From an uncultured Gammaproteobacteria bacterium (GTDB lineage Bacteria; Patescibacteriota; Patescibacteriia; UBA9934), in contig CAYHFQ010000002.1 in NCBI GenBank assembly GCA_964355955.1, forward strand, positions 2,338 through 66,337: a stretch of DNA of 64,000 nucleotides, in the 5' to 3' direction. Numbering within the stretch: the first letter of the stretch is position 1; the number at the start of each line of letters is the position of its first letter. Under the pieces are notes generated by a model that was not told where the DNA came from, did no database searches, and worked only from the letters and a program-made list of their open reading frames with translations. Both the position numbers and the translations under genes were made by a program. Shown in pieces: positions 3,018 through 52,914 of the stretch.

Positions 3018-3824
3018 ATGCTTCGTCAATCGAGAATCACGAAGACGGGTTACGGCTTGCGCACAGCCGGTATTTTTGTCGCCATCGTCCTCGGCTATTT
3101 GTTGTTGCGCGCTATTCCGCCAGTTGGTCGAGTCTTGGCGCGGGTTGAACACGGCTTCGTAGTTTTAGGTACGGGTATTGGGGGCATCATTTCTCGTGTG
3201 ACAAGTTCCGAATCTTCGACTAATTCTAAGCTAAACGTCTGTACCACTCAGCTCGCGCTGGCCACAACACAGGTAGCTGGTTTAAGTGACGAAGCGAAGA
3301 ACATCAAAGAGCTAGAAGCTATGCTCGGTTATGTAGCCGAGTCCCACGTCACAGGAGTGGCAGCTCGCATCGTCACTCGATCGCTGCCTGAGACATCCGA
3401 ATTAACTATCGACAAGGGCAGCAGCGACGGCGTAGTGAGCGGCAGTGCCGTCACCATTGCGGATGGGCACCTACTCGGCGTAGTCACGAGCGTGGCTAAT
3501 GGTTCAGCTCAAGTCCGCCTAGTCCACAGTCAAGCCAGTAGTATTCCCGCCATGATTATAAATAGCGACCGCACTATCGGTTTGGTGGAAGGGCAGGAGG
3601 GTACGGTGCTCCGCATGCAGTACATTCCGCTCGATGCTAACGTCCATGAAGGCGACGTGGTCGTCACGTCCGGCCTAGCTGGGGGTTTGCCGGCTAACAT
3701 CGTCATCGGTTTGGTGACGAGCGTTATTAGCGTGGAGACGGCGCCTTTTCTAGAAGCCTTAATCGAGCCACTCTATGATGACCGTACCTGGACCAACGTG
3801 CTTGTCTTAAGTCCAACTTTTTAA
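3018..3824 (+). CDS. mreC: rod-shape-determining protein MreC
   Basis: N-terminal TM, coiled-coil, and the C-terminal beta domain with the GDVVVTSGLAGGLPANIVIG motif. Position is downstream of mreB. Confidence 0.85.
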   Translation: MLRQSRITKTGYGLRTAGIFVAIVLGYLLLRAIPPVGRVLARVEHGFVVLGTGIGGIISRVTSSESSTNSKLNVCTTQLALATTQVAGLSDEAKNIKELEAMLGYVAESHVTGVAARIVTRSLPETSELTIDKGSSDGVVSGSAVTIADGHLLGVVTSVANGSAQVRLVHSQASSIPAMIINSDRTIGLVEGQEGTVLRMQYIPLDANVHEGDVVVTSGLAGGLPANIVIGLVTSVISVETAPFLEALIEPLYDDRTWTNVLVLSPTF

Positions 3825-25286: not shown

Positions 25287-26133
25287 TTAATTGTAGAAAA
25301 ATTTCAGGTAAAGTTCGACGTACAGCTCGCCAGAAGCGATGTTCTCGTAGTGTAAGCAAGATGACCATCAGTGGAAAGACGACCGTCGCTCGCCAGATTC
25401 GGCGCCAACGTCGCGGTTCAATCGCCAGCCGCCACACCCATTCCAAGCCAATCCTCTGCAGCAGCCTCGGCGCTCTTGGCAAAGTTTTGCCAATCATCGC
25501 GGCTGCTCCACCCACGCCAATCATTACTCTCACTGTGGATAAGTGGTCTACATTCAATGTATACATTGAATGTAGACCAAATATGCACCTCTCCTGCTTC
25601 CCCTGCCCCAGTCCTACTGCAATCACTTGCGCCTGCAATCCTCGCATCTCGTCGATGACGTTCGGCGGTAAATCCCCTGCCTCAGCGATTACTCCAGGAT
25701 CAAGCACGACTACGTCCAGGCCGGGCCACTGCAAACGAAGCTCAGCCGCGGCTCGTTCGTTCGCGCCCTGTTCGCCGAGCAAGAGAAGACGTTGCTGAGA
25801 CTCGACGCATAGTTCAGCCAGCAGTAATAGCGCTTGCACGCCCGGCACGCGGTTTCGCAGAGTCTGTTCGGTCAAGGCGGCCGAGGCAAACCGCAAACCA
25901 ACACCGTCTGGCAAATTCAAGTCAAGGCCGTTCAATAGTTCTTTAAACGATGCATCATGTTGCGCCGCCAATAAAAACTCCGGATTCGGCGTACACACCA
26001 AGTGCGTCATCGCAGCCGCTTTATCGCCGAGCCAATCACGAAACAGCGCCCTCGTCTGTGCTACGTCGACGTTATCGATTCGAACTCCAAGCAAGCTCAC
26101 CGAATTCATACCCGGCGCCATAAAATCACGCAC
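25276..26133 (-). CDS. WecG/TagA-family glycosyltransferase (N-acetylmannosaminyltransferase-like)
   Basis: LLGVRIDNV...LPDGVGL...GLGQGKQERC...IGVGGAAAMIGKTLPRAPRLLQRIGLEWVWRLAIEPRRWRR, the characteristic C-terminal motifs. Confidence 0.65.
   Translation of the reverse strand: MRDFMAPGMNSVSLLGVRIDNVDVAQTRALFRDWLGDKAAAMTHLVCTPNPEFLLAAQHDASFKELLNGLDLNLPDGVGLRFASAALTEQTLRNRVPGVQALLLLAELCVESQQRLLLLGEQGANERAAAELRLQWPGLDVVVLDPGVIAEAGDLPPNVIDEMRGLQAQVIAVGLGQGKQERCIFGLHSMYTLNVDHLSTVRVMIGVGGAAAMIGKTLPRAPRLLQRIGLEWVWRLAIEPRRWRRIWRATVVFPLMVILLTLREHRFWRAVRRTLPEIFLQLIGR
25544..25579. repeat. perfect 36-bp palindrome (18-bp arms, no spacer) inside the tagA/wecG-like CDS
   Basis: tggtctacattcaatgta|tacattgaatgtagacca. 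Both strands encode LHSMYTLNVD. Confidence 0.9.
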
Positions 26134-34425: not shown

Positions 34426-34497
34426 CAGGCTTTCCCCTAACAGGTTTTCCCCCTAATAGATATTCATCGGATGTAGACTCAGTCTACATCGGATGTA
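34426..34497 (+). promoter_or_regulatory. structured def-fmt spacer: tandem caggCTTTCCCCTAA / caggTTTTCCCCCTAA repeats, then a 9-bp-arm palindrome gatgtagac-tca-gtctacatc flanked by catcggatgta direct repeats
   Basis: Read directly from the sequence. Shares the ATGTAGAC/GTCTACAT core with the palindrome inside tagA. Confidence 0.5.
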
Positions 34498-37321: not shown

Positions 37322-40300
37322 CTATTTCACTCCAGCCGGAGTTACGCCAGACAAGAACCCAAAGTTATTGTTAGTACCGTCTCGATCCTGTACCTGGCCT
37401 AAGACAGACCTCATTCCTGCGGCATCATAAACAACAGCATGATCGTAATAGCCGGTATCAAGGTTAACCAGACCCTTCACATTCATGGACTTAGCGATTA
37501 CGGCCTCTTCATAAAGCGTCATCGGCTGTGAGAAGTCAATAATACCGAATGTGCCGTCTTTGAAAGTAGCTATTGCTCGACGCTTATCCCTAACATTACT
37601 CGAGTTTCCAGCCACTGCCAATTCCCCATCGTCGACCAATAGATGCCCAGACATCATATCGATTTTATTCTTTTTAGCTAAACTGAGTAGCGTTGAAAAA
37701 TCCTCCAAATTCTTACGGAAAGCCAATGGTTCTGCGGTCTCATTGCTATCCAAGTCATGTTTAGTTAGCTTATCACGGTTCACAATTATCATGTGTCCTT
37801 CAGCATCTACAATTACCGCGCCATCACGATTAGAAATTAGATAGTTCACCACACTTCCGTTGTCGATAGCTAATTCTGCCGGCTTCATAGCGCCTGTCGT
37901 GTAAGCACCGACGCTTTCCGCTACCAAGGCACCATCCGGGTAATTATCGCGCATAACCTGCTCAGTCAACCCACCGCCAACTTTGACTGTATAATCAACA
38001 GTCGCTCCCTTGCTTGGGTCGCCAATTACAACCGTAGCCAATTCTTTGCCATCAGTGCGCCAAGTTACCATTCTGAAACCAGCTTTGAGTTTCTTGGAAC
38101 TACGTCTTACCTCCGGCGTTATCGACGCCCATTCATCACGCATGACCCCTGCAGATAGTAATCGATCAAAACCTTTATTTAATACATATCCAAAATTACC
38201 ATCTTTTAAACTGCGGGTAGTCTTGCTAAGACTTCCCTCGGTAATTGGAATATTTGCCCCAGCATCTTGCAACTGAGCAATAATATCGGCCGCCCGCCTA
38301 TCACCAGTATCCGTCTCCAGGCCTTCGGTATTAAAAAATTCTAAGATTTTCTGCACCTGGAAAGACCCTAACATTGTGTACATACCAAGTACATCACTAG
38401 GTATGCCTCTACCATCAGCCTTTAAATAATTTTTGGCAAAAGTGGTTTTCTGGTTAATATTGTCCCAAGTCACCGGTTCACCGTCAATTGCCCTTGTCCC
38501 AACATCAATCAATATTTTGTCTCCCGCCGCCGCGTCAATAGCCGCATTTATTTTTTTACGAATATCTTCAACTTTAGAAATATCATTAACATCTATCCCT
38601 TGCGCTACTCCATGCCAATCAACTTGCTTCATGAATTCTGCCTCCAGAGTATTTGCAGCGTCTTTATTGATATCACGAATCAACGAGATCTTAGCCAGAC
38701 CCTGCGTAAACTCGGTAAAGTTGGCTGCTTTAGGCACGCTCACCTTAACAGTTGAATTAAATTGGCCCCTTCCCTCCTGCTGTCCAATGCCAAAGTTGAT
38801 AAATAATAGCTTGGCGTGTTCCGACTCTAGATTCTCGTCTGTAATGACATCAGCAAAACCGTAGACTTCGGTTGAATGTAAGGTATTGGCATAAGCCTGA
38901 GCCAAGCGAAAACCATTAATATTGGTCATTAACTTCAAGACGGCAGCTACGTCCGCCTCAGTCGAAGCGTTCATTTCTGTAGGAAATCCCTTAAAGTTTA
39001 GCTTACTAAAATAAAGTTCACCAGCATTTGTACCAAACTCCTGAGTTATATAGTTAGCCTGGGCCACTACCTCGTCCATGGTCTCCGGTGAGAGAGTAAA
39101 CTGCACGTTAGAATAATCAGCTCTTTCTGCTAATTTACTCATAAAACTCCGGTATTGGAAATACCCATACAATGGCTTGGTTTCCGCATCATACCGCGCC
39201 GAAAAAACCGGGAAACCGGAAAAATCTAGATGCTTAAGAATTTCACTCCTCGTCCTATCTGACTTAAACTGTCGCAATAACTCATCGATGTTTCTTAAAT
39301 CTTCTAATGACTTCGGCTGTTGCCAATTTCCCTCTAAGTGAACGTCCTCGTAGCCAGTAATTTTCAATCTATGCAAATTGCTCTCGAGAGAGGCAGTCTC
39401 TATAATTAAATTAATGTTATCTGCTTCCTTAAGATTATCTATCGTCCAATTAGTCGGATAACCAACTATCTTAACATTGATTCCGTCATCATACCTATTA
39501 ACTAAACTGGCCAGCAAAACCGTCGCAACGGGACTACTATTGATTTCCGCTAATGAAATTTGACCCTCAGATCTATGTTGCTTATCAACAGCGATAGCAA
39601 TATCACCTTTCACTAAACTAGGGTCATTCACTAAATACGCCATCCGTGCAGAATCATAGCCGGAAGATTGTTCAAGATCTTTGATCTTTTTAATTAGCTG
39701 AAAAAAATTATCATCAGTTACTACGCCGCCATAGAATTGCTCCCGAGCTTGCTTTAATAAAATAGCCTCAAGACCAACCTTCGGCTGAAAGTCTTCACTA
39801 TTTTTAATAGCCTTCAGAAAGTTCTCGTATTCTGGTAATCCTAAAGCGTCAAATTTAGGAAACGACGATGGATCAGCATTCTCAATATAGCGCGGGATTA
39901 AGGTTGCATAATAATCCTTAGAACCAACATCTTTTATTAAGGATTCTAACTGATTACCAATTTCTATAAACTGCTGCGGATTTTTAAAATCTAAGCCAGG
40001 AAATCCTTCAAAAGAGGCCGAGTTTAGCAAATGGGTGCCAATTTCAAAACTAAATTTACGGTCATCATAATGATCCCCTTGGAAATCATAATTCTGCGCT
40101 TTCGTAAGACCAAACTCCCAATACCCAATGTCATTAAGCTGCTTGGCAGCCGCCACAATATCTTTAGTGTATTTTTGATTAATTACGGTTGGGAACTCAT
40201 GCGGATCAAAAGTTAATGAATCAATATATTCATCGACTAAAAAAGAACTGTATCTAGCCCCATAATCATCTCTATCAGATTCTTGAACTGCTTTAAATAA

Positions 40301-41044
40301 AAAAGCTCTTAAGCGTGGTAAGTCTTTCTTGTGCAATTCATGAGGTAAATCCTTGAATTCAAAATGTTCAACTAAATTCGCCATCCCCCTACCCAACAAA
40401 TGCTGCATTTTTAAAAAATCAGTCTGACCGTCAATTTCAACGCTAGGTACACGCTGATTAGAATATTCCCTAGCCTGTCTGTACAGCAGCCCTTGAGCAC
40501 ATGTAGCTACATCGTTATACTCGACAATTTCTTCATGTTTTGGGTCTTTGATAACAATGTTATCAATAAACTTCCCCCAGGCTTCGCGTTCATCTAAATA
40601 TTGACGCAAGTCTTGCTCGTCTTTTAGTTCAACCGGTAGTCCATCTAATTTAAAGTGTTCTTCAAAAACGTAAGATAGTTCATTATTATCAAGCTTTGGA
40701 TAATAAGCATGAAGTTTTTTAATCAACTCAGGAATTCTCTCCCTCGTCACTGGTGTCGCCATCTCGCCGGCAAATTCTTTAACAAATTTAGCCTCTGCCT
40801 CGGCCCGCTCGTCAGTTACTTTGCTCGCTACTAATTCCAACTTTTTAAACGGTACATTCCTCTCCGCGAACTCTTCCGCTGTAGTTGCGTGCGGAGGAAC
40901 TGGATGTTCAATCTGGTTCCCTTCAGCCAAAGTCGTCAAACCGAGCAGAACGCCTTGCATCAGGCGACTCTTCCAGGTAAACCTAACTGGCTCTTTTCTC
41001 ACCTCAGGTGAATATCCACCTCTCTCACCATGGCCAAAACTCAT
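37322..41044 (-). CDS. giant hypothetical protein (1240 aa), paralog 1. Internal 'xxGFPxxxxxxxEAD' repeat modules. C-terminal ~330 aa resembles a phosphodiester-glycosidase (NAGPA-like) domain with a degenerate LDGGGS site
   Basis: No recognisable catalytic family in the N-terminal 800 aa. The C-terminus RRAIATFKDGTFGIIDFSQPMTLYEEAVIAKSMNVKGLVNLDTGYYD parallels the NAGPA-family pattern (R.A.G..dG.l.l..vdg...g.tl.ela.....ga.nAlNLDGGGS). An N-terminal hydrophobic segment (LMQGVLLGLTTLAEG) may be a signal anchor. Confidence 0.55.
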   Translation of the reverse strand: MSFGHGERGGYSPEVRKEPVRFTWKSRLMQGVLLGLTTLAEGNQIEHPVPPHATTAEEFAERNVPFKKLELVASKVTDERAEAEAKFVKEFAGEMATPVTRERIPELIKKLHAYYPKLDNNELSYVFEEHFKLDGLPVELKDEQDLRQYLDEREAWGKFIDNIVIKDPKHEEIVEYNDVATCAQGLLYRQAREYSNQRVPSVEIDGQTDFLKMQHLLGRGMANLVEHFEFKDLPHELHKKDLPRLRAFLFKAVQESDRDDYGARYSSFLVDEYIDSLTFDPHEFPTVINQKYTKDIVAAAKQLNDIGYWEFGLTKAQNYDFQGDHYDDRKFSFEIGTHLLNSASFEGFPGLDFKNPQQFIEIGNQLESLIKDVGSKDYYATLIPRYIENADPSSFPKFDALGLPEYENFLKAIKNSEDFQPKVGLEAILLKQAREQFYGGVVTDDNFFQLIKKIKDLEQSSGYDSARMAYLVNDPSLVKGDIAIAVDKQHRSEGQISLAEINSSPVATVLLASLVNRYDDGINVKIVGYPTNWTIDNLKEADNINLIIETASLESNLHRLKITGYEDVHLEGNWQQPKSLEDLRNIDELLRQFKSDRTRSEILKHLDFSGFPVFSARYDAETKPLYGYFQYRSFMSKLAERADYSNVQFTLSPETMDEVVAQANYITQEFGTNAGELYFSKLNFKGFPTEMNASTEADVAAVLKLMTNINGFRLAQAYANTLHSTEVYGFADVITDENLESEHAKLLFINFGIGQQEGRGQFNSTVKVSVPKAANFTEFTQGLAKISLIRDINKDAANTLEAEFMKQVDWHGVAQGIDVNDISKVEDIRKKINAAIDAAAGDKILIDVGTRAIDGEPVTWDNINQKTTFAKNYLKADGRGIPSDVLGMYTMLGSFQVQKILEFFNTEGLETDTGDRRAADIIAQLQDAGANIPITEGSLSKTTRSLKDGNFGYVLNKGFDRLLSAGVMRDEWASITPEVRRSSKKLKAGFRMVTWRTDGKELATVVIGDPSKGATVDYTVKVGGGLTEQVMRDNYPDGALVAESVGAYTTGAMKPAELAIDNGSVVNYLISNRDGAVIVDAEGHMIIVNRDKLTKHDLDSNETAEPLAFRKNLEDFSTLLSLAKKNKIDMMSGHLLVDDGELAVAGNSSNVRDKRRAIATFKDGTFGIIDFSQPMTLYEEAVIAKSMNVKGLVNLDTGYYDHAVVYDAAGMRSVLGQVQDRDGTNNNFGFLSGVTPAGVK

Positions 41045-41073
41045 ATGCGTTTATTATAACACGAATATTTTAT

Positions 41074-44000
41074 CTATTCCTGTGCGGTCTGATAGACCAT
41101 CGGCATACCTGTCAAAAAAGCAAACTTGTTATTCGTTCCATCCTGATCCTGTTGACCTAAGGCAAATAACATACCAGAAGCATCGTACACATTTGCATGA
41201 TCGTAATAACCAGTATCGAGGTTGACGAGACCTTTTACGTTCATCGACTTAGCAATAACCGCTTCCTCATACAGGGTCATTGGCTGCGAGAAATCTATCA
41301 AGCCAAAAGTGCCGTCCTTAAACGTCGCAATCGCCCGCCGCTTATCTCTGACGTTACTCGAGTTACTGGCTATAGCGAGTTCACCATTATCCACCAATAA
41401 ATGACCAGACATGACATCAATCTCGTTCTTGCGAGCTAACGTAAGTAGAGTCGAAAAATCCTCTAGCTTGTCGCGAAAAGCTAAATGATCAGCAGCCTCT
41501 TTACTATCCAGGTCATGCCTAGTTAGTTTATCGCGGTTAACGATATTCAAGGCCCCGTTGACATCAACAATCGCTAACCCATCGCGATCGGAAATTAAAT
41601 AGTTAACCACATAACCGTGGTTAATAGTTAACTCAGCTGGCTTCATCGCACCAGTCGTGTAAGCGCCCACGCTTTCGGCTACCAAGGCGCCTTCTGGGTA
41701 TTTGTCATGCATAACCTGTTCGGTTAACCCACCACCAACCTTCACGGTATAATCTACCGTCGCTCCTTTAGCTGGATCGCCTATCACCGCCTTCGCCAAC
41801 TCCTCACCATTATTTTTCCAATTAACAAAAGTATACCCAGCCTTAAGTCGCTCGGTTCGAGTTTCAAAAATAGGCGTAATACCCTGCCATTCTGGCCGCA
41901 TAACGTCGGCTGCTGCCAACTTGTTTTCAATTTTGCTCCAAATATAAGCTGGGTCACCCATGCTCCGCCAAGCCTTTTGCCAACTGCCCTCAGTCACAGG
42001 GATATTAGCTCCTGCCGCTTGCAAACGCTCAATAGTTTCCGCTACTCGGGCGTCACCTGTATCTGCGGCCAAGCCTTCAGCGTCAAAGAACTCTAAAATC
42101 TTCCGCACTTCAAAAGATCCCAACATCTTATAGACGCCTACTACATCTGGGTCTATACCGTATTGTTCAGCCTGTAAATAATGCTCAGCAAAAGTAATTT
42201 TTTTCTCCATTGTCAGCCAACTGACAGGTACGTTAGCGATATCTCTAATACCGACCTCCACAACCAGTCCGTCCCCTGCTGCAGCATCGATTGCCAAGTT
42301 AATATTCTGGCGTACCGACTCCACGGCCTCGATATTATCGATATCAACACCCTTGGCAACTCCTACCCAGTCTACTTGAGATAAAAATTTTTGCTTCAGC
42401 TCTTCCGCTACCTTATTATCCAAATCTTGCACTAACCCAATTTTCGCCAGGCCAGCAGTAAACTCGGCAAACGTTGTGGCTAGTGGAATAGAAACTTCAA
42501 ATTTTGGCTTTATTCCAGAATATCGAGTCTCTGGCGTAGAACCTATGCCGTAATACACTAATAATCTCTTAGTATTTTCATGCTCTAAATTCTCATCAGT
42601 AATAATTGGGGCGAAAGTATAAAGATGATCAGAATGTAGAGTTTTAGCATAACTACTGGCCAAATCTTCCTGAAAACTATTAATAAATAGTTTTAGAGTA
42701 GCGGCCACATCAGCTTCGGTTTTTTCATTAACTTCTTGTGGAAAGGCAGCAAAAGTTAGTTTGTTCAAATAGCCCCTAGCCTCACCAGTTCCAACAACAT
42801 CTACTAAATAGTCAAACTGCCGTTTTATTTCTGGTAGATTATCGGGAGTTACCGCAAAAATACAGTCAGAGAAGTCGGCTCGTTCCACTAAGCCCGGGCC
42901 GAACCAGCGACTGACCAGAGAGCCACGTTTTAATATGTTGGCCTTGTAACTTGCCGAAAAGACTGGAAATTTTGAATAATCAAGATGTCTAACAATTATT
43001 CGTCCAGTTCTTTCGTGCTCTTTTAAAATTGCCGCCAGATTCTCTAGATCATGCCAAGTTCTGGGCTGACTCAGTTCACCCTCAAACTTCACGTCACGAT
43101 AATTACTGGACCCGATGTCAATTTGGCTACCTAATAAATCAACAGCCTCGATTGCTTTCTCGATTTCCGTAATGTTTTCTAAAGTCCAAACCATCGGGAA
43201 GCCATTTAAGGAGATTTTATCCGGAATTCTGTAATTAAAAAATTGGTGAAAAAAGGCTTTACCTGTTGGGCTCTTTTCTACTTCTTGTAGTGCTAGTTCA
43301 CCAGGCAGCTTATGTTCAGCAGCAAGCGATAAGGTTAAGTCACCTCGCCAATGAGCAACTGGAGCCATCAAGGAAACGAGAAGTTCCGGTTCAACATCTG
43401 ACTCGGCATCAAGTCTAGCTAACTCAGCCAAGACAGTCTCTAAATTTTCAGGCGTTATATCCCCCAATTGCGCTTGGCGTCGAATAATCCTTATTAATTC
43501 GTTTCTTGTATTATCTCGATCCCAGGCAAAATCAATATTATTATCAAATTCAATAAAGAAAGTTTGATACGTTTCCAAGCCTGCAGTATTAAGTTCAGGG
43601 AAATTTCTTGTTTCAGCTAAATCTACAAAATGTGACGCCAGACTTGACCGATAAATCGTTGAACCAGCAGACTTACCGAGATCAGTCAAAATTCTAACAG
43701 TGTCCGCAAATTGCTCAGGGTGGTGAAAATCTAATGGATTAAAACCCTCAAATGTTGAACTCCTAAGTAGTTGATGGCCTAATCCAAAACTGACAGGAGC
43801 ATCTTTATTCACCCAATCACCATCTTGAATATCTAATGATTTGCTAATCCCATTCTTATAAAAGCTTATTTGGTTCAACTGTTTAGCGGCCGCTAAACTA
43901 TCTGCTGAATCATCCTTGTGGATGACTGTCGGAAATTCAGCTGAATCGAAGGTTAATGTGGCAATATATCTATCTAACAAAGCAGTCGTACAAGCATCGT

Positions 44001-44691
44001 CAACATGGTTCAATGCGCCACCACGACGAACCGCCTCCAATAAAAACGAACGTAAGCGTGGTAAATCACGCTTGTGAATTATATGCGGTAAACCTGCAAA
44101 TTCTATTTCTTCCACGCGTCGTAACTGATCGTCAACGGTTTCTACCTGCAACTGATAAAAATCTTCTTTGTCTCTAACTACTAGCTTAGGAATAGGACTC
44201 TTTTGGTAAGTATGTTCATGTTCATACAAGACGCTGAGCAACCATGAATCCTCCGACTTTTCAAAAATTTTCTTCCACGACTCGTGAGTTGCGAGATATT
44301 GACGAAAATCTTGCTCATTTTTTATTTTCTCGGGAAAACCGGCTAATTTGAATTGTAGTATGAAATCAGTGGGTATAGTGTCGTGAGGAGTGGCGAAAGA
44401 TTGAAGCTTTTTATCCAAAGCTGGCAACTGGTCAGCCGTAATCGGAGATTGTAATTCAACGGCAAAAACACGCTTGAATTCTTCACCTCGTTCAGCTAAA
44501 TCTTGAGCCGCTGGATTCGCGCCCACTTCACTTATTTTCACTAATGGCTCAGAACGCGCTGCAAATTCAGCTGTGGAAGTTTCACTATAGCCATCTGGTA
44601 CGTCCAACCGCTCTCCGGCAGCCATCGTCGCCAGACCAAGCAAAGCGCCCCGCATCAACCGGCTACCTCCCTCCCCTTGGCCAAACTTCAT
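41074..44691 (-). CDS. giant hypothetical protein (1205 aa), paralog 2 (tandem duplicate of 37322-41044)
   Basis: Same architecture. N-terminus MKFGQGEGG vs MSFGHGERGG. The C-terminal 350 aa are about 75% identical to paralog 1. The 29-nt gap to paralog 1 contains TATAAT. Confidence 0.55.
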   Translation of the reverse strand: MKFGQGEGGSRLMRGALLGLATMAAGERLDVPDGYSETSTAEFAARSEPLVKISEVGANPAAQDLAERGEEFKRVFAVELQSPITADQLPALDKKLQSFATPHDTIPTDFILQFKLAGFPEKIKNEQDFRQYLATHESWKKIFEKSEDSWLLSVLYEHEHTYQKSPIPKLVVRDKEDFYQLQVETVDDQLRRVEEIEFAGLPHIIHKRDLPRLRSFLLEAVRRGGALNHVDDACTTALLDRYIATLTFDSAEFPTVIHKDDSADSLAAAKQLNQISFYKNGISKSLDIQDGDWVNKDAPVSFGLGHQLLRSSTFEGFNPLDFHHPEQFADTVRILTDLGKSAGSTIYRSSLASHFVDLAETRNFPELNTAGLETYQTFFIEFDNNIDFAWDRDNTRNELIRIIRRQAQLGDITPENLETVLAELARLDAESDVEPELLVSLMAPVAHWRGDLTLSLAAEHKLPGELALQEVEKSPTGKAFFHQFFNYRIPDKISLNGFPMVWTLENITEIEKAIEAVDLLGSQIDIGSSNYRDVKFEGELSQPRTWHDLENLAAILKEHERTGRIIVRHLDYSKFPVFSASYKANILKRGSLVSRWFGPGLVERADFSDCIFAVTPDNLPEIKRQFDYLVDVVGTGEARGYLNKLTFAAFPQEVNEKTEADVAATLKLFINSFQEDLASSYAKTLHSDHLYTFAPIITDENLEHENTKRLLVYYGIGSTPETRYSGIKPKFEVSIPLATTFAEFTAGLAKIGLVQDLDNKVAEELKQKFLSQVDWVGVAKGVDIDNIEAVESVRQNINLAIDAAAGDGLVVEVGIRDIANVPVSWLTMEKKITFAEHYLQAEQYGIDPDVVGVYKMLGSFEVRKILEFFDAEGLAADTGDARVAETIERLQAAGANIPVTEGSWQKAWRSMGDPAYIWSKIENKLAAADVMRPEWQGITPIFETRTERLKAGYTFVNWKNNGEELAKAVIGDPAKGATVDYTVKVGGGLTEQVMHDKYPEGALVAESVGAYTTGAMKPAELTINHGYVVNYLISDRDGLAIVDVNGALNIVNRDKLTRHDLDSKEAADHLAFRDKLEDFSTLLTLARKNEIDVMSGHLLVDNGELAIASNSSNVRDKRRAIATFKDGTFGLIDFSQPMTLYEEAVIAKSMNVKGLVNLDTGYYDHANVYDASGMLFALGQQDQDGTNNKFAFLTGMPMVYQTAQE

Positions 44692-46192: not shown

Positions 46193-47191
46193 TTAATCGA
46201 TCAACTTTTTAATCTGCTTTTCAAAGTCCGACTCAATTGGCTGTGTTTTATTGAACATCTCATATTCAGATAATGCCTTTTTCTCAGCCGTAGCCATACT
46301 TACCACACCTTTATTCTTCAACACCTTAAACTTGTTAAAAGCTAAGAAATTACCAATACTCTCGGCAAACTCCTTCATGGTTAAAGTCTGTTCCTGTTCA
46401 ATCAAGTTTTCGACATAGTCAAAGTAGTTAGTTATCGTTCGCTCTAACCTCTTGATATCCTTCTCGGCTAAATAATTCTTAGCCACCACGACATCCGACG
46501 GCAACACCCGACCATCTGGACTATTCTTCCAACTCGTTAACCCCATATGCTTCTTGTTCCTATCGACCTTACTATGGATAATCTCCGCCGCCGTCTGACC
46601 AGTAATCGCAAAATGGAATAGGTTTTGTACGGTCGCAAAAAATGCTCGAGTCGTAGGTGACTTGGGATCATAGTCAACACTACACTCCGAAAATATATCC
46701 GTGATCTGCAAATACACCCTACGTTCACTCGCCCGAATCGACCGAACTCTCTCCAGCAACTCTCTAAAATAATCCTTACCAAATACTTCCTTACCCTGTT
46801 TCAACCTCTCATCATCCATGGCGAAACCTTTAACCACATACTCCTGCAGCACCCTTGTCGCCCATATCCTAAACTGTGTCGCCTGCACAGAATTCACCCG
46901 GTATCCAACGGAAATAATGGCGTCGAGGTTATAGAACTGAGTTTCATATTCCTTGCCATCAGCGGCAGTTATTCGAATTTTTCGAATAACTGCTTTTTCG
47001 CTTAACTCAGCAGTTTTAAACACCTCTTTAAGGTGATAATTGATAGTATTTGCCTCCACGCCAAATAACTCCGCCATCATCTTCTGCGTCAACCACAAAG
47101 TTTCCCCCTCTACCCGCACCTCAAACCTAACCGCTCCACTTGGGGTGGTGTAGAGGATAAAAGGGGTCAAGTTTGATTTTTCTTTAGCCAT
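46193..47191 (-). CDS. RhuM-family protein (virulence-protein RhuM family)
   Basis: N-terminus FILYTTPSGAVRFEVRVEGETLWLTQKMMAELFGV...YNLDAIISVGYRVNSVQATQFRIWATRVL matches the conserved RhuM N-domain. 332 aa. Confidence 0.75.
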   Translation of the reverse strand: MAKEKSNLTPFILYTTPSGAVRFEVRVEGETLWLTQKMMAELFGVEANTINYHLKEVFKTAELSEKAVIRKIRITAADGKEYETQFYNLDAIISVGYRVNSVQATQFRIWATRVLQEYVVKGFAMDDERLKQGKEVFGKDYFRELLERVRSIRASERRVYLQITDIFSECSVDYDPKSPTTRAFFATVQNLFHFAITGQTAAEIIHSKVDRNKKHMGLTSWKNSPDGRVLPSDVVVAKNYLAEKDIKRLERTITNYFDYVENLIEQEQTLTMKEFAESIGNFLAFNKFKVLKNKGVVSMATAEKKALSEYEMFNKTQPIESDFEKQIKKLID

Positions 47192-51181: not shown

Positions 51182-51781
51182 TTAATGGCCAACTTTTAAA
51201 CGATAGTCCAAATCTTGGGCAAAGATTATTTCATCTAAATATCCCTGCTTTTTAGCGTCAAAAACTTCTCGACCTATATGGTCACGCGCCCCAATTACAA
51301 TACACGATTTTTGATATTCGTCTTTCAAATAGCGTACCGCGTGCATTAAATCCCCATCCCCTGAGAAAAGTACCAATGAATCATAGGAATCACGATACTT
51401 CACTAGGTCGATTGCCATTTCAACATCCAAATCACACTTCTTTTCAAACCCAATCTTATTATCAGAAGAATGGATATATTTAACTCGCTTAGTGACAATT
51501 TCAAATTTATTCCATTTGGCTTTTTCCAAAATCAATCGCGACCATTCAGAAAGTGCTGACGACCTTTCATCTTTGCCAAAATCTGAACCATAGTAAAAAC
51601 GTCTATTCTGTCTATTACCGAGCGAAAAGTGCTTGACCAACTGAGCCAATTTACCAATATCAATATTCCAACCTAGACTATTCTTCCATTTCTCTACATT
51701 ACCAAAATCAACAATAACCATCGTTCGGTCAAGCTTAACTGCATATGTATCGAGATATTTCTTAATCTGTTCCTTATTCAT
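51182..51781 (-). CDS. NYN-domain (LabA-like, PIN-related) predicted RNase
   Basis: VIVDFGNVEKW ... LVLFSGDGDLMHAV, the NYN acidic motifs. 199 aa. Confidence 0.65.
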   Translation of the reverse strand: MNKEQIKKYLDTYAVKLDRTMVIVDFGNVEKWKNSLGWNIDIGKLAQLVKHFSLGNRQNRRFYYGSDFGKDERSSALSEWSRLILEKAKWNKFEIVTKRVKYIHSSDNKIGFEKKCDLDVEMAIDLVKYRDSYDSLVLFSGDGDLMHAVRYLKDEYQKSCIVIGARDHIGREVFDAKKQGYLDEIIFAQDLDYRLKVGH

Positions 51782-51797
51782 AATCCAGATCCATCTT

Positions 51798-51858
51798 ACA
51801 CCATTTTCGTGATATCACGAAAATGGTGTGTCGGTATGTTCCAATCTGGAACATACCG
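51798..51858. promoter_or_regulatory. two strong palindromes just upstream of NYN: a 32-bp perfect palindrome acaccattttcgtgat|atcacgaaaatggtgt and cggtatgttcca-atc-tggaacataccg
   Basis: Read directly. The first starts 17 nt upstream of the NYN start codon. Confidence 0.6.
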
Positions 51859-51940
51859 GGTTTCCCTTTATTTAATGATTTGTTGACGTCAACAAAATGA
51901 TAATTCATTGGTGAATTGATAAAAATGTGCAATAAATAAT

Positions 51941-52030
51941 AAACGTGAAAAACATCAAAATTTAGTCATAATTCACGTTTATCTTGACTATAAACGTGAA
52001 AAATGGTAAAATATCGTCATAATTCACGTT
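51941..52030 (+). promoter_or_regulatory. Fic promoter/operator: two tandem ~40-bp units (aaacgtgaaaaa-N-gtcataattcacgtt, each an inverted repeat) around a TTGACT-17-TAAAAT promoter (51984-52012)
   Basis: Unit 1 is 51941-51980 and unit 2 is 51992-52030. Further palindromes: ttgacgtcaa (51882-51891), aattcattggtgaatt (51902-51917). Confidence 0.55.
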
Positions 52031-52041
52031 AATTATTTGCT

Positions 52042-52914
52042 ATGGCTAGGCTCAAGTCGTATCTAAAAGAGATTGATAATTTGCGTAAACGCTATTTTTT
52101 GGCTTTACCAGGCAAAGAATCGCTCGTGAAACTAATTAGTGAAGCTGAGGTTTCGGAGCAAGTTTATAACTCAAATGCTATTGAGAATAGTACGTTAACC
52201 TTGGAAGAGACCGAGAAGATTTTGCTTAAATTGGACCTCGATCGCTACATCAGCGAACGAGAACTATTTGAAGCTAAGAATCTAGCTCAGGTGACTAACT
52301 ACATGGAGATACGGGCTCATGAGCAGCCACTCAATGAGGACGTGGTGCTCCTGCTCCACAAAATGCTGTTAACGAATATTCGTACCGATATCGCCGGACG
52401 GTTCCGAGCGGCAGACGAATGGGTTCGTGTTGGTAGCTATATTGCTGCCAACCCAGCTGAAATTTACGAGCTTCTGGCTAACATGTTTACAGAATATGCC
52501 GCCAATCCGCAGCTGCACATTGTTAAACGTCTAGCTAGGTTCCATTTAACCTTTGAGCATATTCACCCGTTTGTTGACGGCAATGGTCGCATGGGCCGCA
52601 CCATGAATAACTACCTCTTGCTACGTGACGGTTATGTGCCGCTCACTATTCTTTTCGCTACCCGCGAGTTGTATTACCAGGCTTTCAAGGAGTTTGATGC
52701 GACAGGTTCAACGTCGACTATGGAAGATATCATCGGTTTAGCCCTACGAGAAAGTTACCACAAGCGCTTGGCATATCTTGAAGGTAAAAAGATTATTACC
52801 CTCAATGAATATGGGAAGATAAACAATATCACGCTTTCTGCCCTACTCAATAAAGCCGCACGCCAAACTATTGAAGCTTTTCGCGAGAAAGGGACGTGGA
52901 AGATTGGAGTTTAA
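52042..52914 (+). CDS. Fic-family protein (class II, with N-terminal inhibitory-helix motif SNAIEN and canonical HPFVDGNGRMGR)
   Basis: The HPFx(D/E)GNGR active-site loop is exact. (S/T)xxxE(G/N) is present near residue 44. 290 aa. Confidence 0.85.
   Translation: MARLKSYLKEIDNLRKRYFLALPGKESLVKLISEAEVSEQVYNSNAIENSTLTLEETEKILLKLDLDRYISERELFEAKNLAQVTNYMEIRAHEQPLNEDVVLLLHKMLLTNIRTDIAGRFRAADEWVRVGSYIAANPAEIYELLANMFTEYAANPQLHIVKRLARFHLTFEHIHPFVDGNGRMGRTMNNYLLLRDGYVPLTILFATRELYYQAFKEFDATGSTSTMEDIIGLALRESYHKRLAYLEGKKIITLNEYGKINNITLSALLNKAARQTIEAFREKGTWKIGV

Follow-up and report, generated by a model that had tools for sequence, protein, structure and literature searches.

The 64,000-nucleotide (nt) stretch of contig CAYHFQ010000002.1 analyzed here (hereafter, the window) contains, at positions 51782-52041, a spacer of 260 base pairs (bp) that separates two divergent genes. 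The minus-strand gene on one side (51182-51781) encodes a 199-amino-acid (aa) NYN-domain protein of the LabA-like type (Pfam NYN, E = 7.8e-16); its start codon is consistent with those of its homologues (MNKEEIKK...), and it heads the minus-strand cluster of a defense island. The plus-strand gene on the other side (52042-52914) encodes a 290-aa class II Fic protein (PDC-S04/SoFic-like) with a SNAIEN motif, the active site HPFVDGNGRMGR, and a C-terminal winged helix. A first-pass annotation of the window described six symmetric elements in this spacer, (i) to (vi), and interpreted them as multi-factor repression of both genes. Our recount finds all of them, and the density of symmetric elements is far above chance: when the whole window is scanned for perfect inverted repeats (arms of at least 8 nt, loop of at most 30 nt), 6 of the 36 repeats fall inside the spacer, which makes up 0.4% of the sequence and for which about 0.15 repeats are expected. 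However, the six elements do not constitute one system. The spacer is probably a composite of two unrelated elements, namely the promoter-operator of the Fic gene (51939-52033), which travels with Fic only, and copies of a phage-type palindrome (51798-51896), to which elements (i) and (iii) belong. The operator and promoter proposed for Fic are supported by the analysis, whereas repression of the NYN gene remains a conjecture, since a search of the spacer for sigma-70-like promoters gave none for NYN.

Promoter and operator of the Fic gene

The Fic-proximal part of the spacer contains two 44-nt direct repeats (51939-51982 and 51990-52033), which are 84% identical and have a period of 51. These are the tandem units (v) and (vi) of the first-pass annotation, in both of which the described aacgtgaa/ttcacgtt-type inverted repeat is exact; however, the inner gap of each unit is 12 nt and not N10, and the true repeat unit is an 11-bp half-site, ATAAACGTGAA, present in four copies arranged as ->N22<- 7 ->N22<-. 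The pattern AACGTGAA-N22-TTCACGTT is exact in both units and occurs nowhere else in the window (0 expected). A motif search of the window for further members of a regulon gave none: AACGTGAA-N15-30-TTCACGTT, both palindrome arms, and TAAACGTGAAAAA were found only in the spacer.

The first half-site, H1 (ATAAACGTGAA, 51939-51949, plus strand), is kept as CGTGAA in orthologues and is separated by 22 nt from H2 (TTCACGTTTAT, 51972-51982, minus strand). The 7-nt gap between H2 and H3 contains the -35 hexamer TTGACT (51984-51989, plus strand), in place of which most orthologues have TTGACA. The third half-site, H3 (ATAAACGTGAA, 51990-52000, plus strand), lies within the promoter spacer and is followed by the extended -10 element TGgTAAAAT (52004-52012, plus strand), which corresponds to TATAAT in locus L015 and CATAAT in locus L013 at an equal offset from H3. 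The fourth half-site, H4 (TTCACGTTAAT, 52023-52033, minus strand), covers approximately positions +4 to +14 of the predicted transcript and is present only in the clade formed by the window, L013, and L015. Thus, the widely spaced inverted repeat ATAAACGTGAA-N22-TTCACGTTTAT occurs twice around Fic's own predicted promoter TTGACT-17-TAAAAT. This promoter, already recognized in the first-pass annotation, has 10 out of 12 matches and an upstream TG, and its -35 and -10 positions are conserved in orthologues. The two operators, O1 (H1/H2) and O2 (H3/H4), each have 22 bp between their arms, and their centers are 51 bp, or about five helical turns, apart; O1 stops 1 bp before the -35 hexamer, while O2 fills the promoter spacer, spans the -10 element, and reaches the first transcribed bases. 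In addition, H2 and H3 form a further inverted repeat centered on the -35 hexamer.

A scan of 185,000 species genomes gave 80 loci, about 46 of which have full-length Fic orthologues with 39-64% identity. These orthologues originate from more than 10 phyla, including groups of the candidate phyla radiation (CPR), Bacteroidota, Planctomycetota, Verrucomicrobiota, Spirochaetota, Nitrospirota, Elusimicrobiota, Bdellovibrionota, and others. The motif GTGAA-N21-23-TTCAC is located at most 200 nt upstream of Fic in 39 of the 46 full-length loci, and about 26 of the 46 have a third CGTGAA another 16-17 nt on, with TTGACA in between. The common layout is CGTGAA-N22/23-TTCACG-(-35)-CGTGAA-(-10)-ATG, and the spacing between H1 and H3 is 50-51 bp throughout. 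For instance, L015 (72% aa identity, other neighboring genes) has all four half-sites, and L013 (77% aa identity) has three of them, H2-H4. The earlier description of the tandem units as operator-like and overlapping the Fic promoter thus extends to orthologous genes in many phyla. The motif is found in 0 of 34 more distant Fic loci (28-37% identity), and the rest of the 990 kb of fetched DNA contains 2-3 matches, which is chance level (4.7 expected). Viral contigs gave 13 matches to the Fic operator, all of them chance occurrences in GC-rich coding DNA and none adjoining a Fic gene, and BLAST searches with the spacer and with the Fic protein against phage and plasmid collections returned no match.

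Several lineages have altered half-sites, namely CGTTAA in L030, AGTTAA in L031, GATTAA in L032, and AGTAAA in L044, and all half-sites within one such locus carry the same change. In L032, moreover, the gap between H1 and H2 is reduced from 22 to 11, which is exactly one helical turn. Judged from the aligned loci, this concerted change is characteristic of a sequence-specific protein and binding sites that evolve together.

The position of the operator relative to the start codon varies in the family. In most orthologues (L017-L061), the ATG lies 6-10 nt past the -10 box, which would give the mRNA little or no leader; the clade of the window, L013, and L015 instead has a leader of ~22 nt that bears the fourth half-site. 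Two relatives of the window segment 51993-56018 (L011:1-60 and L012:1-50; 86-87% identical) have ATA and not ATG as the Fic start codon, gene callers begin their Fic proteins 28 codons downstream (262 aa), and both contigs break within the tandem operator repeat.

The Fic protein as a candidate autorepressor

The Fic protein has the active site HxFx(D/E)GNGRxxR, in which residues H175, P176, F177, D179, G180, N181, G182, R183, and R186 are invariant among 45 homologues. The class II inhibitory helix (S/T)xxxE(G/N) is present on the same chain as S44-N-A-I-E-N49, which is invariant in the family, and the structural model superposes on FICD and BT_2513. The last 50 aa belong to the best-conserved stretches of the protein, on a par with the active site, with N270, K271, A272, R274, Q275, I277, F280, E282, and W286 being invariant. 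Residues 251-290 (nt 52792-52911) are modelled by AlphaFold as a MerR/excisionase-type winged helix with the order beta-alpha-alpha-beta-beta; the C-terminal domain alone has a predicted local distance difference test (pLDDT) score of 92.6. The predicted fold of residues 251-290 superposes on DNA-bound members of this type at 1.5-2.5 A (42-45 residues). The model thus suggests that the window protein, like the CccR-type Fic proteins, carries a C-terminal DNA-binding (helix-turn-helix, HTH) domain.

The first-pass annotation considered the cognate repressor not obvious and named the Doc-type protein encoded in the window as a candidate. Searches for an HTH in the N-terminus of the Doc-like protein or in the C-terminus of Fic gave nothing significant (Pfam; PDB sequence search), and the best candidate is Fic itself, via its C-terminal winged helix. 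Most likely, the Fic protein represses its own promoter through the region 51939-52033 in a CccR-like manner, because no gene but Fic travels with the operator, the winged helix is conserved, and CccR provides a precedent. In the proposed mechanism, Fic would dimerize via its enzyme core, which would set the two small C-terminal winged helices far apart, and each of these domains would read one CGTGAA half-site. Two Fic dimers, one on O1 and one on O2, would block RNA polymerase, and the potentially toxic AMP-transferase would be kept at a low, self-limited level.

CccR from Yersinia pseudotuberculosis, a class II Fic toxin that carries a C-terminal HTH, acts as an autorepressor; it binds AGATAATCAT-N26-ATGATAATCT over its own -35/-10 as a back-to-back dimer, with 70 A between its DNA-binding helices, and represses itself (PMC9755527). 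CccR and the window Fic protein are both class II, with an N-terminal inhibitory helix and the canonical HxFx(D/E)GNGRxxR, and in both cases the operator consists of two ~10-bp inverted repeats that are more than two helical turns apart (N26 in CccR, N22 in the window) and lie over the protein's own -35/-10. However, CccR has 380 aa and combines an N-terminal DUF4172 with a large winged helix of the SoFic type, whereas the window Fic protein has 290 aa and a 40-aa MerR/excisionase-type wing, and only the Fic cores of the two proteins align (7xux, E = 5e-4, residues 73-228). The CccR operator has two half-sites and the window-type operator three or four; CccR is an effector of a type VI secretion system, whereas the window Fic gene is located in a defense island. 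Binding and repression have been demonstrated for CccR and are predicted for the window Fic protein.

Two other groups of known proteins share features with the window Fic. Its core matches the models of the SoFic/PDC-S04 single-gene anti-phage Fic candidates (PADLOC; PMC12249575), with E = 7.7e-33 for PDC-S04 and E = 1.9e-28 for SoFic, and the setting in a defense island with RhuM/PDC-S05, Doc-like PDC-S23, and an AbiO/Nhi-like helicase is a further likeness. However, the NCBIfam SoFic equivalog cut-off (NF046030) is not reached (42.5 vs 550 bits), the C-terminal domain is another one, and a conserved downstream small antitoxin like AS1 is missing. The MerR/excisionase-type winged-helix binders, such as BldC, TnrA/GlnR, phage Xis, and P2 Cox, have a fold like that of Fic residues 251-290, but show no significant sequence similarity to them; in addition, the window domain is fused to an enzyme, and its half-sites are ~33 bp apart from center to center, whereas those of the MerR/excisionase-type binders are adjacent.

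A separate regulator, encoded elsewhere in each genome, could alternatively bind the CGTGAA operator, with the Fic C-terminus being employed in target recognition or in DNA-dependent activity control. The latter has been proposed for Coxiella CbFic2, which together with SoFic has a domain plan like that of CccR; CbFic2 binds DNA without apparent sequence specificity, and DNA switches its enzyme activity (PMC10628234). We consider this explanation unlikely, since across more than 10 phyla, and in neighborhoods that are unrelated, the operator accompanies the Fic gene, and an unlinked regulatory gene would need to be co-transferred with Fic each time. No conserved neighbor was found among the open reading frames (ORFs) within 2 kb, the largest flanking-ORF family occurring in 3 of 46 loci, and this also holds for an adjacent small antitoxin gene of the Doc/Phd-like type II toxin-antitoxin kind. 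The lineage-specific half-site variants likewise argue against a universal host factor. A point in favor of the separate regulator is locus L178 (L178:2000-2096), in which an NYN homologue (73% identity) is preceded by a full Fic-type operator (GTGAATGA subtype), GGTGAATGAA-N-CATTCACTG-TTGACT-CGGTGAATGAA-TAAAAT-ATG. A MazG-like gene adjoins it, as in the window, and no Fic gene is visible on this 3.6-kb contig. This locus hints at a regulatory link between the 290-aa Fic family and NYN genes.

The same locus is one of several points that weigh against autorepression by Fic and against our interpretation of the spacer as a whole: according to L178, the operator can serve genes other than Fic, and an unlinked regulator is thus possible. 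In addition, Pfam has no model for the Fic C-terminal domain, for which HTH families reach only E = 0.04-0.1, and Foldseek gives no significant E-value for the 59-aa model. The recognition-helix sequences also differ in the loci with variant half-sites, but this link is based on only about four independent lineages. On the NYN side, about 80 other NYN homologues lack the palindrome motif in their upstream regions.

Among single genes in uncultured bacteria, those for Fic proteins of the 290-aa type belong to the most widely transferred, and they score as anti-phage candidates. A family-wide, sequence-defined operator combined with a fused DNA-binding domain offers a testable answer to the question of how such enzymes are tolerated by the cell. 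If autorepression by Fic is true, expression of these proteins would be self-limiting, possibly coupled to DNA-dependent control of enzyme activity, and the single experimental precedent, CccR, would be extended to another DNA-binding fold and to many phyla.

Phage-type palindromes on the NYN side

Palindrome (i) is a perfect 16+16 palindrome of 32 bp with the arms ACACCATTTTCGTGAT and ATCACGAAAATGGTGT (51798-51829), as given in the first-pass annotation, and 16 nt lie between it and the NYN ATG (51781). It is a near-consensus copy of the family ACCATTTTC-N10-GAAAATGGT. This palindrome is not an assembly artefact, because two independent ENA assemblies span 51798-51829; de Bruijn-graph contigs (Logan) from three other runs break exactly within it, at 51800 and 51827. 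The adjacent hairpin (ii), also described correctly, is a perfect 12-3-12 repeat (51832-51858); its arms match only two viral contigs, both distant look-alikes. Element (iii), reported as a 10-mer, is a perfect 9+9 palindrome of 18 bp (51879-51896; TTTGTTGAC and GTCAACAAA, that is TTTGTTGACGTCAACAAA) and a degenerate second copy of the family of (i); with its right flank (51879-51899) it reads TTTGTTGACGTCAACAAAATG, which is identical to the viral consensus core. Elements (i) and (iii) are 74 bp apart, have TTTnnTGAnnTCAnnAAA in common, and align at 15 out of 21 positions, because both are copies of one palindrome family. Element (iv) (AATTCAttggTGAATT, 51903-51918) is present, but its arms of 6 bp are below the 8-bp threshold of our scan and at chance level, as we estimate that about two such repeats would be expected per 260 bp. 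At 38663 and 38840, within a 1240-aa gene, TTTnnTGAnnTCAnnAAA has near-matches that are attributed to chance; the window has no further non-coding sites.

By their sequence, (i) and (iii) are copies of a family of 28-32-bp palindromes, GACCATTTTnnTGAC-G-TCAnnAAAATGGTC (family pattern GACCATTTTnnTGACGTCAnnAAAATGGTC), which is present in at least 240 viral contigs. A scan of IMG/VR with ACCATTTTC-N10-GAAAATGGT gave at least 120 matches, where about one is expected by chance, and a scan with the sub-pattern ATTTTGTTGACNTCAACAAAAT from (iii) also gave at least 120, the flanks of which yield the consensus GACCATTTTGTTGACGTCAACAAAATGGTC. The middle 10 nt are usually symmetric as well, for example GTGACGTCAC and CTGACGTCAG, and GGGAATTCCC likewise keeps its pairing. 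GenBank phages of Streptococcus, Flavobacterium psychrophilum, Fusobacterium, Bifidobacterium, Akkermansia, and Porphyromonas carry the palindrome, which is conserved across bacterial phyla whatever the GC content (21-72%). Statistics per locus were collected for the 120 viral loci among the matches listed. In this set, the copies are mostly intergenic, with flanking genes that are mostly co-directional (48 tandem pairs, 13 convergent, and 6 divergent), and no conserved neighbor gene was identified, the top families each being present at 10 of the 120 loci; genes for integrase, CI/LexA-like repressor, antirepressor, DinD, and endolysin recur near the palindrome, each at no more than 10. In annotated phages, one copy lies between an anti-repressor gene and the gene that follows it, another is 93 nt ahead of the small terminase gene (terS), and a third separates rusA from a methylase gene. 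No published description of the family was found, and a literature search by motif strings gave only unrelated primer sequences.

In one frame the palindrome can be translated as [DN]HF[RPV][DE]x[TRGN]KMV. This is a real peptide only in DinD-like genes, at 9-10 of the 120 loci, and at least 85 of them have this frame closed nearby on both strands; the apparent residue pairs R..T, P..R, and P..G obey DNA symmetry and not protein logic. The DinD-like genes with the palindrome in their coding sequence, where it encodes DHFR(E/D)VTKMV, are those of L211, L251, L309, L199, L225, L312, L303, L252, L247, Streptococcus phage Javan290, and Akkermansia phage Chantilly, and their DHF and KMV codons are exact reverse complements of each other. 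Palindrome (i) itself reads HHFRDITKMV, and its origin from a decayed DinD gene was rejected, as the frame is closed by stops on both sides and on both strands; its flanks do not encode the DinD-like ..IGSG..RYACYL.., and a tblastn search of the window with a DinD-like protein gave nothing.

Upstream regions of ~85 NYN homologues (57-80% identity) have no conserved palindrome except for L147, L114, and partly L097, and on this comparison (i)-(iii) are not a feature of the NYN family. In L147, ACCATTTTC-N10-GAAAATGGT ends 18 nt before the NYN ATG, with the same arms and gap as in (i) and at nearly the same position. A GTGATAT/ATATCAC palindrome lies across the NYN -10 in L097. Locus L114 has two direct repeats of ~100 nt (L114:1810-1900 and 3727-3817), each with the hairpin CCATTTTCAC-CGGACA-GTGAAAATGG (N6 gap), which lie upstream of an ORF of 169 aa and an ORF6N-like gene; the same contig contains two NYN paralogues.

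At the 5' boundary of the NYN cassette, the palindrome would most likely act as a cis element, either as a protein-binding site or as a DNA or RNA hairpin; in related small genomes, members of the family also precede other NYN and accessory genes. More specifically, we tentatively propose that it is an undescribed cis element of phage and defense-island cassettes that is recognized by a widely conserved factor or through its structure; in the window it may gate the NYN nuclease cassette and is perhaps the natural hairpin substrate of NYN-type RNases. Conserved stem-loops are known at gene-cassette boundaries of phages, such as the promoter-early stem-loops of T4-type phages. Like these, the GACCATTTT...AAAATGGTC family is short, intercistronic, and close to accessory genes; however, it is conserved from Streptococcus to Flavobacterium to CPR-like genomes and also occurs within DinD-like coding sequence. 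The palindrome is a lead to what is possibly a general signal that punctuates or regulates phage accessory genes, and it is accessible in cultivable systems, namely pneumococcal prophages, Flavobacterium psychrophilum phages, and Porphyromonas phages.

The view of the first-pass annotation, in which (i), (ii), and (iii) are operators of a dimeric repressor that silences the NYN operon, has a few observations on its side: the sequence common to (i) and (iii), the closeness of (i) to the NYN ATG, the position of the L097 palindrome over its NYN -10, and the phages that have arrays of two or three related palindromes. Yet it appears doubtful, given the lack of a detected sigma-70-like NYN promoter in the spacer and of additional sites outside coding sequence in the window, and given that the palindrome stands beside unrelated genes in hundreds of phages with no common neighboring regulator. 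The arrays consist of different family members side by side (L221:8131-8220, L203:5941-6007, and L302:10527-10577); the order TTTGTTGACATCAACAAA, ATAGACCATTTTCCTGACGTCAGGAAAATGGTCTAT, ACCATATTGCCGACGCTGGCAATATGGT in L221 recalls the (iii)/(i)/(ii) cluster of the window.

The palindrome family is neither a standard terminator nor a known RNA, because T runs are not enriched next to it (9% vs 7% in controls; mean 4.19 vs 4.06 T per 12 nt) and there is no Rfam match; covariance models searched at E <= 10 gave only noise (E >= 1), far below the gathering scores. Hairpin (ii) looks terminator-like on the plus strand, where it is followed by GGTTTCCCTTTATTT, but was rejected as an intrinsic terminator, since no plus-strand gene or promoter precedes it. 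These results bear on a further explanation, by which the palindromes are RNA hairpins in the NYN 5' leader that affect mRNA stability, occlude the ribosome site, or serve as the NYN RNase substrate, or by which (i) and (ii), with the U-rich tail, give a short RNA of the plus strand or a terminator, antisense to the start of NYN. Consistent with it, (i) and (ii) fold into two adjacent hairpins on either strand (-41 to -42 kcal/mol, z about -7.5), and the inner stem of the viral copies varies with its pairing kept. However, a perfect symmetry folds alike on either strand, which makes the energies uninformative about RNA, and concerted change of symmetric halves is equally expected from a co-evolving dimeric protein; we regard the RNA explanation as rather unlikely.

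It is improbable that the phage-type palindrome is a recombination site or cassette boundary for accessory or defense genes and marks the NYN-Fic cassette junction in the window. The palindrome can be read as 11-6-11, like the core site of a tyrosine recombinase, integrase genes lie within 4 kb at 10 of the 120 viral loci, and the sites in annotated phages are at module boundaries (after the anti-repressor gene, before terS, and between rusA and the methylase gene). Moreover, each of the two copies in L114 is directly upstream of a different accessory gene, and a close relative of the source genome has other genes upstream of the same Fic gene. Against such a role, no recombinase is consistently linked, the usually symmetric center gives no directionality, and the palindrome is also found within intact DinD-like genes.

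Defense island and other repeats in the window

The spacer belongs to a low-GC island at ~37-53 kb, with about 40% GC compared to 52% elsewhere in the window. Its defense-type genes extend from DUF2779 to Fic (44.7-52.9 kb; Pfam, PADLOC) and include, besides NYN and Fic, genes for a DUF2779/Cas4-like protein, two RhuM proteins (PADLOC PDC-S05), a Schlafen-type helicase (AbiO/Nhi-like), a Doc-like Fic protein (PDC-S23), and a MazG-like protein. Most of the remaining low-GC part (~37-45 kb) is filled by two adjacent paralogous genes at 37322-44691, which encode proteins of ~1200 aa with near-identical C-terminal parts and a weak match to NAGPA (phosphodiester glycosidase). At the other end of the island, the 3' end of the Fic gene overlaps a convergent Wzy_C (O-antigen ligase-like) gene by 47 nt (52868-52914). 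The relatives with 86% identity retain this Fic-Wzy junction but have different genes upstream of Fic (Bro-N, RhuM, MazG-like, and a 207-aa ORF).

Other strong symmetric sequences in the window include a perfect 13-3-13 hairpin, GCAGTTATTCGAAtttTTCGAATAACTGC, at 46965-46993 within the coding sequence of a RhuM protein (332 aa). The longest palindrome of the window is located outside the island; it is a perfect 36-bp repeat with the arms TGGTCTACATTCAATGTA and TACATTGAATGTAGACCA (25544-25579) and has a GTAGAC core in common with the 10-1-10 palindrome GATGTAGACTcAGTCTACATC (34470-34490), which is also outside the island.

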